A stretch of DNA of 64,000 nt from Escherichia phage Barry. Below, piece after piece: positions 3,838-5,316 of the stretch. Each line of letters opens with the position of its first letter. Position 1 is the stretch's first letter. Under the pieces are notes generated by a model, which was not told the origin of the DNA, searched no databases, and worked only from the letters and a program-made list of their open reading frames with translations. The stretch lies in the sequence record LR880803; one strand, given 5' to 3'. The translations under genes were made by a program, and so were the position numbers.

Positions 3838-3914
3838 GCACCTATAGCCCAACTGGTAGAGGCAGCAGACTTAGAATCTGCTCAGTGTGAGTTCGAATCT
3901 CTCTAGGTGTACCA
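3838..3914 (+). tRNA. tRNA-Leu (anticodon TAG), short variable arm
   Basis: 77 nt; acceptor gcaccta/taggtgt, perfect anticodon stem gcaga/tctgc with loop ctTAGaa, 5-nt variable loop, A at discriminator, CCA encoded. Confidence 0.65.
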
Positions 3915-3921
3915 AATTAAT

Positions 3922-3997
3922 GCAGGTGTAGCAAAATGGTTATGCGGCTGACTCTTAATCAGTAAGACGATGGGTTCAATTCCCTCCACCTGTACCA
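3922..3997 (+). tRNA. tRNA-Lys (anticodon CTT)
   Basis: Acceptor gcaggtg/cacctgt, anticodon stem gctga/tcagt with loop ctCTTaa, T-loop GGGTTCAATTCCC shared with the Lys(TTT) gene, CCA encoded. Confidence 0.6.
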
Positions 3998-4003
3998 AAC
4001 AAT

Positions 4004-4079
4004 GGGGTCATAGTTTATATGGTTAAAATTCGAGTTTTGCAAACTTGGGAACTGAGTTCAATTCTCAGTGACTCCACCA
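4004..4079 (+). tRNA. tRNA-Ala (anticodon TGC)
   Basis: Acceptor ggggtca/tgactcc with the G3:U70 wobble typical of tRNA-Ala, anticodon loop ttTGCaa, T-arm CTGAGTTCAATTCTCAG, CCA encoded. Confidence 0.75.
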
Positions 4080-4085
4080 ATTAGT

Positions 4086-4160
4086 GCATCCATAGTTTAA
4101 ACGGGAAAATTACAGTCTTCCAAACTGAGGTTGAGGGTTCGATTCCCTCTGGATGCTCCA
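4086..4160 (+). tRNA. tRNA-Gly (anticodon TCC)
   Basis: Perfect acceptor gcatcca/tggatgc, anticodon loop ctTCCaa, T-arm GAGGGTTCGATTCCCTC, CCA encoded. Confidence 0.75.
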
Positions 4161-4167
4161 AATTAAT

Positions 4168-4243
4168 GCTCCTATCGTATAATTGGTTATTACGGTTGCC
4201 TTGTAAGCAACTTATCAGGGTTCGAGTCCTTGTGGGAGCACCA
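4168..4243 (+). tRNA. tRNA-Thr (anticodon TGT)
   Basis: Acceptor gctccta/tgggagc, perfect anticodon stem gttgc/gcaac with loop ctTGTaa, T-arm CAGGGTTCGAGTCCTTG, CCA encoded. Confidence 0.75.
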
Positions 4244-4339
4244 ATTCAGAGGTCAAGTGAAAGACCGCTTTGAGTCAACTGAAGACCGTAACAAATTCCA
4301 CGAAGTTGAGTTAGCGGCACAACTTCAGACCTCTTTCAT

Positions 4340-4414
4340 ACTCGCTTAGTTTATATGGTAAAACATCACCCTTACAAGATGAAGAAAAAGGTTCAAGTCC
4401 TTTAGTGAGTACCA
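4340..4414 (+). tRNA. tRNA-Val (anticodon TAC)
   Basis: Acceptor actcgct/agtgagt, anticodon loop cTTACAa in a stem with one mismatch, T-arm AAAGGTTCAAGTCCTTT, CCA encoded. Confidence 0.6.
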
Positions 4415-4415
4415 T

Positions 4416-4493
4416 GTTCCAGTATCCCAATTGGCAGAGGATGCAAGCTCAAACCTTGTATTAGTGACGGTTCGAATCCGTCTTGGAACACCA
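4416..4493 (+). tRNA. tRNA-Leu (anticodon CAA), short variable arm
   Basis: 78 nt; acceptor gttccag/ttggaac, anticodon stem gcaag/cttgt with loop ctCAAac, T-arm GACGGTTCGAATCCGTC, A at discriminator, CCA encoded. Confidence 0.65.
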
Positions 4494-4498
4494 ATTTT

Positions 4499-4574
4499 GC
4501 AGGATTAGTTCAAATGGATAGAGCAACAGTCTACGAAGCTGTTAATAGGGGTTCGAATCCCTTATCCTGCGCCA
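4499..4574 (+). tRNA. tRNA-Arg (anticodon ACG)
   Basis: Perfect acceptor gcaggat/atcctgc, D-arm GTTCAAATGGATAGAGC, anticodon stem acagt/gctgt with loop ctACGaa, T-arm AGGGGTTCGAATCCCTT, CCA encoded. Confidence 0.75.
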
Positions 4575-4593
4575 ATTTAAAGAGGCTATTTAG

Positions 4594-5151
4594 ATGAGAT
4601 ATTTGAAGTATGCTTCATGGATTTTCTTAGCTTTGTTAGAGCCATTTGCAGCAATCTTAGCAGTTATCTTAGCACCTTTTGTAGTTCCATTCTACAGTGA
4701 GAAGAAAGGACACTTACCTTTCGGGTTCAGATGGATGGAGACATATGACAACCCAATTGATGGTGATGAAGGTCACGTTAAAAGATGGGCTAATATTAGA
4801 TGGATTGGTAAACTAGGTGTCTACATGCAAAGAGTCGGATGGCTCTGGAGAAACAAAGCTTATAACTTCTCTTACCATGTATTAGGAAGAGATGTAAGAG
4901 ATGTTACTAAGTGGAAAGGTAATATCAACGTAAGTTCTGACCCCGAAGATAATCAGACAGGTTATCTCCTAATGTGGAACAGTAATGCTTGGGGATTATT
5001 CGCTTTTATCCCATCAATTAAAATCTTTGGTAAACAATTTTACTGGAGAATTTATATTGGATGGAAACTAAAAAGTGTTGTCCCAGAAGAAAGAGCATTC
5101 TCAAGGGAAAGAGTTATGTTGGCATTCTTTATTCATCCACTGAGAAAGTAA
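4594..5151 (+). CDS. hypothetical membrane protein inside the tRNA island
   Basis: ORF with SD aagagg upstream of ATG; hydrophobic N-terminus (WIFLALLEPFAAILAVILAPFVV). Confidence 0.5.
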   Translation: MRYLKYASWIFLALLEPFAAILAVILAPFVVPFYSEKKGHLPFGFRWMETYDNPIDGDEGHVKRWANIRWIGKLGVYMQRVGWLWRNKAYNFSYHVLGRDVRDVTKWKGNINVSSDPEDNQTGYLLMWNSNAWGLFAFIPSIKIFGKQFYWRIYIGWKLKSVVPEERAFSRERVMLAFFIHPLRK

Positions 5152-5159
5152 AGATTTAA

Positions 5160-5235
5160 AGGGGATTAGTTTACAAGGTTAAAACCTCGGTCTTTGAAAT
5201 CGAAGAAGTTGGTTCAATTCCAACATCCCCCGCCA
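5160..5235 (+). tRNA. tRNA-Gln (anticodon TTG)
   Basis: Acceptor aggggat/atccccc with a 1:72 mismatch, D-stem gttt/aaac, anticodon stem tcggt/atcga with loop ctTTGaa, T-arm GTTGGTTCAATTCCAAC, CCA encoded. Confidence 0.65.
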
Positions 5236-5237
5236 AT

Positions 5238-5316
5238 GCTCCATTACTCCAATTGGCAGAGAGGCCAGACTTAAAATCTGTGTTATGTATCGGTTCGAAT
5301 CCGATATGGAGTACCA
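5238..5316 (+). tRNA. tRNA-Leu (anticodon TAA), short variable arm
   Basis: 79 nt; acceptor gctccat/atggagt, anticodon stem caga/tctg with loop ctTAAaa, T-arm ATCGGTTCGAATCCGAT, A at discriminator, CCA encoded. Confidence 0.6.

Follow-up and report, generated by a model that had tools for sequence, protein, structure and literature searches.

Three phage leucine tRNAs that lack the long variable arm: probable members of a widespread type I lineage

Introduction

Leucine tRNAs without the long variable arm (type I tRNA-Leu, as opposed to the long-armed type II, or class II, form) are a known kind, described from mitochondria and from Streptomyces coelicolor. The S. coelicolor type I tRNA-Leu(CAA) has a bacterial-type body, a leucine anticodon and a 5-nt variable loop (ACAGC), coexists with type II tRNA-Leu and is charged by the single leucyl-tRNA synthetase (LeuRS) of this bacterium; the study that reported this terms type I tRNA-Leu rare in bacteria and does not mention phages (Fan 2019, PMC6614811). 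Animal mitochondrial tRNA-Leu(UUR/CUN) also belongs to type I; it needs no long arm for charging, and its determinants are A73 and A14 (PMC9976931). For E. coli LeuRS, the identity set consists of A73, U8:A14, A15:U48 and the placement of G18G19 and A20a together with the T-loop partners; neither the anticodon nor the long arm is required, and a minimal tRNA-Leu without both arms is still charged (reviewed in PMC9976931). The same review covers the minimal E. coli tRNA-Leu constructs of Larkin et al. 2002, Asahara 1993/1998 and Tocchini-Valentini 2000, armless RNAs that are leucylated by E. coli LeuRS if A73 and the D/T-loop contacts are intact. Here we analyse three tRNA-Leu genes, with anticodons UAG, CAA and UAA, that lie between positions 3838 and 5316 of a 64,000-nucleotide stretch of DNA from Escherichia phage Barry (sequence record LR880803; this whole stretch is referred to as the window) and that lack the long variable arm.

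As genes, the three leucine tRNAs are already known: hundreds of phage records carry them as annotated features, and nothing in the window is new in kind. The genome paper of phage Felix O1 gives these genes as Leu by tRNAscan-SE and does not comment on their structure, and our full-text literature searches found no paper on phage leucine tRNAs without the arm. From the comparisons described below, we consider it likely that they are functional type I leucine tRNAs of a widespread armless lineage that are charged by the host LeuRS, and not recent deletion derivatives of host type II tRNAs.

Results and discussion

Structure of the three leucine tRNAs

ARAGORN and the Rfam tRNA model RF00005 concur on three leucine tRNA genes, for which an earlier note on this DNA had proposed the anticodons TAG, CAA and TAA, lengths of 74–76 nt before CCA and variable loops of 5–7 nt:

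3838..3914, + strand: tRNA-Leu(UAG), type I, 77 nt including CCA (ARAGORN; Rfam RF00005, 57.3 bits; annotated in OX016465)
4416..4493, + strand: tRNA-Leu(CAA), type I, 78 nt including CCA (ARAGORN; Rfam RF00005, 44.0 bits)
5238..5316, + strand: tRNA-Leu(UAA), type I, 79 nt including CCA (ARAGORN; Rfam RF00005, 47.5 bits)

The lengths before CCA are 74 nt for Leu(UAG), 75 nt for Leu(CAA) and 76 nt for Leu(UAA), and all three genes end in ACCA, so that the CCA is encoded. In the ARAGORN cloverleaves the variable region comprises 5 nt in Leu(UAG) (UCAGU), 6 nt in Leu(CAA) (AUUAGU) and 7 nt in Leu(UAA) (GUUAUGU), and it forms no stem. Each tRNA combines a leucine anticodon and a variable loop of around 5 nt (5–7 nt) with an otherwise bacterial tRNA-Leu body, the features that define type I, and none carries the variable arm of more than 10 nt with a stem that distinguishes class II tRNA-Leu. 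The serine and tyrosine tRNAs of the same array served as internal comparators, and the long arms that the earlier note had ascribed to them were measured at 15, 16 and 21 nt, those of the two tRNA-Ser forming a stem:

1257..6511, + strand: array of 26 tRNA genes that includes the three Leu genes (ARAGORN)
1750..1837, + strand: tRNA-Tyr(GUA), 88 nt, variable arm of 15 nt (ARAGORN)
3145..3231, + strand: tRNA-Ser(UGA), 87 nt, variable arm of 16 nt (ARAGORN)
6339..6431, + strand: tRNA-Ser(GCU), 93 nt, variable arm of 21 nt (ARAGORN)

The three Leu genes exceed the RF00005 gathering score of 29 bits by 15–28 bits, with full-length matches to model positions 1–71. Infernal places the anticodon loops (CUUAGAA, CUCAAAC and CUUAAAA, respectively) in the ARAGORN register with posterior probabilities of ~1, and the depositors' tRNAscan-SE calls use this register as well. 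A shifted anticodon register was rejected on the agreement between ARAGORN and Infernal; the covariance model, which the earlier note had named as a check on its anticodon call, left the register unchanged. The D arms read GCC-CAACUGGUAGA-GGC in Leu(UAG), UCC-CAAUUGGCAGA-GGA in Leu(CAA) and CUC-CAAUUGGCAGA-GAG in Leu(UAA). G1.U72 is present in both Leu(UAG) and Leu(UAA), the former having a single mismatch in the T stem (U50.U64) and the latter a mismatch atop the anticodon stem (C27.U43), and Leu(CAA) has C38 in its anticodon loop. The discriminator is A73 in 3/3, as the earlier note had stated.

Leucine identity elements in the core

For comparison with the host, we used the E. coli K-12 genes leuV/P/Q, leuZ, leuW and leuX, and all tRNAs were divided into arms. 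In the E. coli tRNA-Leu, a D stem of 3 bp carries an 11-nt D loop (RAAUYGGUAGA), and the variable arm of 13–15 nt ends in GU. The phage Leu tRNAs likewise combine a 3-bp D stem with a D loop of 11 nt (CAAYUGGYAGA; CAACUGGUAGA or CAAUUGGCAGA), with the same loop length and register, and positions 13 and 22 form a non-pair in all three according to Infernal. When aligned jointly, phage and host tRNAs stay colinear apart from one gap of 8–10 nt at the arm hairpin, and there is no variation at U8, A14, A15, G18, G19, U33, U48 and A73 or in the T loop. All three phage tRNAs have the T loop UUCGAAU and contain A15:U48, U8:A14, G18G19 and A20a, a combination of Leu features that no further tRNA in the window has. 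The partners for G18:U55, G19:C56 and U54:A58 are predicted to be kept. Judged by sequence, the phage Leu tRNAs retain all non-arm elements on the E. coli LeuRS list and, apart from the missing arm, are orthodox bacterial tRNA-Leu.

Marks of other identities are missing from these tRNAs. Pair 3:70 is A-U, U-A and U-A in the three, so that the alanine mark G3:U70 is not present, and the serine combination of a long arm with G73 is not found, since they have no arm and carry A73.

The phage tRNAs share with the E. coli type II tRNA-Leu A73, U8:A14, A15:U48, the 3-bp D stem, the 11-nt D loop and the same three anticodons, and the G1.U72 of two phage Leu genes also occurs in leuZ. They differ in the arm, which in the host has 13–15 nt with a stem of 4–5 bp, in position 13, which is a purine in the host and C in the phage tRNAs, and over the rest of the molecule, where identity to E. 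coli is 43–63%. The anticodon loops also differ: leuW has G37 (the m1G site) where phage Leu(UAG) has A37 (anticodon loop 3870–3876). The C38 of Leu(CAA) (anticodon loop 4448–4454) breaks the A36-A37-A38 motif used for i6A37. These differences may alter modification or nuclease recognition. Compared with the armless tRNA-Leu already described, the engineered minimalist E. coli tRNA-Leu are artificial constructs, whereas the phage genes are natural and selected, and the animal mitochondrial tRNA-Leu have degenerate, floppy cores and their own LeuRS, whereas in the phage tRNAs both core and elbow are of the fully canonical bacterial kind.

Conservation with compensatory changes

The region that carries these genes is 100% identical to Escherichia phage vB_Eco_Tribble and phage heid and matches 312 phage records, nearly all of them Felix O1-like (Felixounavirus) and originating from Escherichia, Salmonella, Shigella and Citrobacter. 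These matches identify the window phage, by sequence, as a Felixounavirus, that is, a Felix O1-like E. coli phage. In BLAST searches with each gene, conservation of the three Leu genes was 95–100% across more than 250 records of Felixounavirus and Mooglevirus. Their orthologs in Erwinia phage phiEa104, a member of the same subfamily, are also armless; the Leu(CAA) ortholog has an unrelated yet fully paired acceptor stem, its anticodon and T stems differ by double compensatory changes, and its D arm is identical. Compensatory changes accompanied by gene conservation span Felixounavirus, Mooglevirus and Kolesnikvirus.

This pattern bears on the possibility that the genes are decaying pseudogenes or an artefact of prediction, with a wrong register or cloverleaves formed by chance. 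The Felix O1 paper does give some tRNAs of the array as 'pseudo', and two of the Leu genes each contain a single stem mismatch. Against this stand scores well above the Rfam threshold, a register on which ARAGORN, Infernal and tRNAscan-SE agree, and the conservation with compensatory changes across the three genera, and we regard decay or artefact as highly improbable.

Armless leucine tRNAs in other phages

Armless tRNA-Leu was also found in distant phages. BLAST returned colinear matches of Leu(UAG), at 74–87% identity, to annotated tRNA-Leu of very different phages. Annotation and ARAGORN together confirmed armless Leu beside long Ser/Tyr tRNAs in a Bixzunavirus mycobacteriophage (three Leu genes, 74–76 nt), and likewise in Streptomyces phage Elmer, the Klebsiella Certrevirus KaOmega, a Pseudomonas phage, cyanophage P-RSM6, a crAss-like phage, the T5-like phage OSYSP and Erwinia phage phiEa104. 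By the same two lines of evidence, an Enterococcus Schiekvirus belongs with these phages and has one armless and one long Leu gene. Enterococcus phage vB_OCPT_Bop carries, within positions 2825–3068, a long-armed tRNA-Leu(UAA) of 86 nt and an armless tRNA-Leu(UAG) of 76 nt that are ~80 nt apart, with a phage tmRNA downstream. T4 has an 87-nt type II tRNA-Leu. Among coliphages, armless tRNA-Leu is present in at least two unrelated families, the Felix O1-like and the T5-like phages, and Certrevirus phages that infect Klebsiella and Cronobacter have it too.

To extend the comparison to viral contigs, IMG/VR was scanned with patterns for short- or long-spaced Leu tRNAs, and the counts cover the matches listed (at least 120 for each scan). 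In loci seeded by an armless Leu tRNA, the variable region measured at least 14 nt in 83/83 Ser tRNAs and at least 10 nt in 38/38 Tyr tRNAs. A73 occurred in 176/176 and U48 in 173/176 of the unique armless Leu tRNAs collected from phages and viral contigs, neither position being part of the search pattern, and 15:48 was A:U in 200 of 201 armless Leu tRNAs, the remaining one having G15:C48. The fold was also supported by pairing: across 122 armless sequences with less than 82% mutual identity, 98% of the 20 cloverleaf pairs were canonical, compared with 44–47% when the partner was slid by one position, a result that is supportive rather than independent because ARAGORN itself selects for pairing.

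The frequency of the armless form was estimated from three scans seeded by patterns for Arg(UCU), Met and Thr tRNAs, which yielded 327 new loci after exclusion of those already fetched. These neutrally seeded loci contained 48 armless and 87 long Leu genes (48/135). Short forms of Ser (3/107) and Tyr (2/49) were rare by comparison (5/156, ~3%) and were irregular calls, and the difference between armless Leu and short Ser plus Tyr was significant (Fisher p = 2e-13). Both Leu types were mixed in the arrays of 16 of the 81 neutrally seeded viral loci with a Leu gene. Roughly one-third of phage Leu tRNA genes are type I, a rough figure in that the earlier-fetched loci are excluded and IMG/VR includes prophage ends. 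Armless tRNA-Leu is therefore far more common, both in phages and, as described below, on actinobacterial chromosomes, than the literature that we searched suggests.

A probable type I lineage shared with Actinobacteria

Cellular genomes were scanned with the short-spacing pattern, using one genome per species, and the genera named here are those among the matches listed. The armless Leu matches were mostly from Actinobacteria, including Nocardia, Mycobacterium, Gordonia, Rhodococcus, Corynebacterium, Arthrobacter, Bifidobacterium, Rothia and Amycolatopsis. The actinobacterial gene is a solitary, G+C-rich and highly conserved 73-nt tRNA-Leu (UAA, CAA or UAG) that stands alone in its 8-kb locus. 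Chromosomal type I tRNA-Leu is present in many actinobacterial genera, far more widely than the single Streptomyces case of 2019. The Actinobacteria form a large exception to the statement in the earlier note that bacterial tRNA-Leu is normally class II. A study of the toxin MenT3 found long arms in only some Leu tRNAs of M. tuberculosis. Some metagenome-assembled genomes (Acidobacteriota) have armless Leu inside arrays of 25–30 tRNA genes.

Several features connect the phage genes with this group. The window Leu(CAA) has the same D arm as several type I tRNA-Leu(CAA) encoded on actinobacterial chromosomes, and related actinobacterial genes have D arms of the form UCC/GCC-CAAUUGGCAGA-GGA/GGC and an NNAGU loop in common with the window tRNAs. 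Calculated without the variable loop, the anticodon and position 13, the window Leu(UAG) is 78–80% identical to actinobacterial chromosomal genes, compared with 51–63% to E. coli tRNA-Leu. Among the ten nearest neighbours of armless Leu tRNAs, 83% were also armless, against a base rate of 59%. Position 13 (3850, 4428 and 5250 in the window Leu tRNAs) is C in ~80% of armless Leu tRNAs and in none of the long-armed Leu tRNAs tabulated, 96% of which have a purine there (G13 or A13); a T5-like minority of armless Leu tRNAs combines G13 with a U-rich loop. C13 co-occurs with G at 46 or 47 (loop NNAGU or NNGUU), whereas the G13 subtype has UUU or UCU there. This co-occurrence may reflect a tertiary contact that replaces the arm; when a consistent 13:46 or 13:47 pair was sought in the armless Leu tRNAs, no single column paired throughout.

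The identical D arm, the higher identity to actinobacterial genes, the clustering of armless sequences and the C13 signature together suggest that the phage Leu genes are members of a widespread type I lineage and not fresh deletions of host genes. Recent deletion from a host tRNA-Leu was rejected, as the identity to E. coli genes outside the arm is so low (43–63%). An origin of Leu(UAG) by anticodon shift from another class I tRNA of the phage would fit its identities within the window, which are 74% to Arg(UCU) and 69% to Leu(UAA), but its Leu-type D arm and 78–83% identity to armless Leu tRNAs elsewhere point to the Leu lineage. The phage tRNAs nonetheless differ from the S. coelicolor tRNA-Leu(CAA), which is encoded by an essential host chromosomal gene, has C48 and does not use A73 as an identity element, whereas the window tRNAs are phage-borne and have U48. 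The enzymes differ as well, in that S. coelicolor LeuRS has an adapted leucine-specific domain, while the phage tRNAs would depend on the ordinary LeuRS of E. coli or Salmonella (PMC6614811 for the Streptomyces features).

Probable charging by the host synthetase

With E. coli LeuRS as query, tblastn produced 37 hits in 50,697 phage records, and no Escherichia or Salmonella phage was among them. With no LeuRS found in coliphages, charging falls to the host enzyme, so that the type I tRNA-Leu of coliphages has to rely on a synthetase that the 2019 study restricts to type II. In the proposed sequence of events, the three Leu tRNAs would be co-transcribed with the other tRNAs of the array, and host enzymes would process them. 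Host LeuRS would then leucylate them by reading A73 and the elbow and core, as it does not read the anticodon and, according to the work of Asahara, Tocchini-Valentini and Larkin, does not strictly need the arm. Once charged, Leu(UAA) would read UUA and UUG, Leu(CAA) would read UUG, and Leu(UAG) would read CUA (plus CUG).

The closest functional parallel comes from phage OSYSP (MF402939.1), whose whole genome has just two Leu tRNA genes, both 77 nt long and armless. This phage is the source of the leucine tRNA used in a 'swapped genetic code' E. coli, and a recent preprint reports that a 'bacteriophage-derived (GenBank MF402939.1) tRNA-Leu(CGA)' decodes TCG as leucine in E. coli. The OSYSP tRNA-Leu(UAG) and tRNA-Leu(UAA) resemble those of the window in their coliphage origin, 77-nt length, 5-nt loop, A73, A15:U48, 3-bp D stem and 11-nt D loop, and the Ser and Tyr tRNAs of OSYSP keep long arms, as in the window. 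They differ in having G13 and the loop GUUUU in place of C13 and NNAGU, and the phage belongs to the Demerecviridae. We infer charging of the window tRNAs from the full non-arm identity set, from strong purifying selection across several enterobacterial phage families and from the decoding reported for the OSYSP scaffold.

Several observations weigh against this conclusion. E. coli LeuRS failed to leucylate a transcript of the S. coelicolor type I tRNA-Leu(CAA) and was described as an enzyme that 'only charges type II'; Streptomyces LeuRS needs its special leucine-specific domain, whereas that of E. coli favours large variable loops (Fan 2019, PMC6614811). The decoding by the OSYSP tRNA is known second-hand from a later preprint of the same group and concerns another subtype (G13, loop GUUUU). 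In the window itself, two of the three Leu genes have a stem mismatch (U50.U64 and C27.U43), and Leu(CAA) and Leu(UAA) have lower Rfam scores (44–47 bits). It is because of the in vitro result of Fan 2019 that we infer, rather than state as fact, the charging of these exact tRNAs. Like nearly all armless Leu tRNAs, those of the coliphage have U48 opposite A15, a feature that E. coli LeuRS is reported to need (PMC9976931), whereas the S. coelicolor tRNA has C48; this difference would be a plausible reconciliation with that result. The features that would let E. coli LeuRS accept a type I tRNA (possibly U48, G1.U72 or loop length) would be useful for tRNA engineering, a field in which a phage armless Leu scaffold is already in use.

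The earlier note had left two alternatives, namely that the phage truly uses compact Leu tRNAs or that their identity differs from the anticodon-based call. The first is favoured by the LeuRS identity set that they keep and by the OSYSP scaffold, which reportedly inserts leucine in E. coli irrespective of its anticodon. The second supposes that the tRNAs are charged with another amino acid or act as uncharged decoys or regulators, and the failure of E. coli LeuRS on one natural type I tRNA-Leu in vitro (PMC6614811) would agree with it, as would the differences of the anticodon loops from the host isoacceptors (A37 for G37 in Leu(UAG) and C38 in Leu(CAA)). However, A73, A15:U48 and the Leu-type D arm are ~100% conserved over hundreds of armless Leu tRNAs, which would be needless for a decoy. 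Neither alanyl-tRNA synthetase (AlaRS) nor seryl-tRNA synthetase (SerRS) identity applies, as G3:U70 and the long arm are missing, and no other anticodon-independent mark was seen; the remaining synthetases recognise anticodon bases that are not present here (identity rules, PMC9976931). Moreover, an armless phage scaffold, that of OSYSP, is reported to insert leucine in E. coli, and misreading of three Leu codons, about half of the Leu codons of the phage, would harm its own proteins. We consider a different identity very unlikely.

Loss of the arm in leucine tRNAs only

The restriction of armlessness to leucine tRNAs can be compared with what the synthetases recognise. Arm size is a major identity element for bacterial SerRS, whereas LeuRS has no need of the arm (PMC9976931). 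The near-absence of armless Ser and Tyr tRNAs from the same arrays fits the rule that LeuRS is arm-independent and that SerRS and tyrosyl-tRNA synthetase (TyrRS) are arm-dependent, and the contrast of Leu with Ser/Tyr within the same arrays forms a natural experiment that mirrors this biochemical rule. Bacterial TyrRS, too, binds the variable arm. Ser and Tyr tRNAs would be unable to lose the arm because SerRS and TyrRS recognise it, which would explain why only Leu tRNAs are armless.

A different explanation is that arm loss serves anti-defence, in that the phage Leu tRNAs would escape nucleases or toxins that attack the class II arm and Leu codons would stay readable while host type II tRNA-Leu is attacked. 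Several observations agree with this explanation: PtuAB of Septu and retron-Eco7 cuts E. coli tRNA-Tyr at U47/C48, and the tRNA-Tyr of T5-like phages resists through a distinctive variable loop; MenT3 prefers long-armed Ser tRNAs; and phage tRNA arrays are strongly enriched in armless Leu. However, among known nucleases we found none that targets the tRNA-Leu variable arm, T4 keeps its 87-nt type II tRNA-Leu, and both types occur together in many phage arrays. Many Actinobacteria conserve this armless form on their chromosomes, where evasion of defence is no obvious driver, and the data are explained equally well if a dispensable arm was lost neutrally or if the form was simply inherited within a type I lineage. 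On balance, we think an anti-defence origin rather unlikely. A more specific version, which we think unlikely, holds that phage type I tRNA-Leu has been selected because removal of the arm hides the Leu supply from host defence nucleases and toxins or from shut-off nucleases made by the phage itself; its corollary is that E. coli LeuRS would charge natural type I tRNA-Leu efficiently given U48 and A15, against the published view that this enzyme is limited to type II. We argue that arm loss as protection has no direct support and that the chromosomal actinobacterial genes show the form to be possible without such pressure.

Codon use

The leucine codons of the window open reading frames (ORFs) comprise 27% UUA, 13% UUG, 11% CUA, 15% CUG and 28% CUU, and the G+C content of the phage is 39%. 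In E. coli, UUA makes up ~13%, CUA ~4% and CUG ~50% of Leu codons. UUA and CUA are used more by the phage than by E. coli, and therefore the three anticodons cover the codons for which phage demand most exceeds host supply, with the exception of CUU. Codon compensation is the role usually proposed for phage tRNAs, and the Felix O1 paper suggested it for Leu(UUA).

The tRNA array and its surroundings

The Tribble record OX016465 annotates the same 26 tRNAs as our analysis, with the three tRNA-Leu at identical positions. The array contains one conserved ORF, at 4594–5151, and the gene for the terminase large subunit lies downstream of the array.

Some tRNAs of the array have acceptor sequences in common. 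The 5' acceptor strand GTTCCAG occurs in both tRNA-Glu (1341–1347) and tRNA-Leu(CAA) (4416–4422), and tRNA-Arg(UCU) (2830–2906) and tRNA-Leu(UAG) (3838–3914) have the acceptor ends GCACC.../...GGTGT with G1.U72 in common. The discriminator of tRNA-Ser(GCU) (6339–6431) is U, compared with the usual bacterial G73, and U73 also occurs in both tRNAs with a CAU anticodon (1510–1586 and 2430–2506). In the tRNA-free gaps of the array at 2525–2829 and 3051–3125, there are weak, sub-threshold Rfam matches, namely to tmRNA_permuted (29 bits) and tmRNA (16 bits) and a tRNA-Sec-like match (23 bits), which could be degenerate tRNA-like remnants or chance matches.

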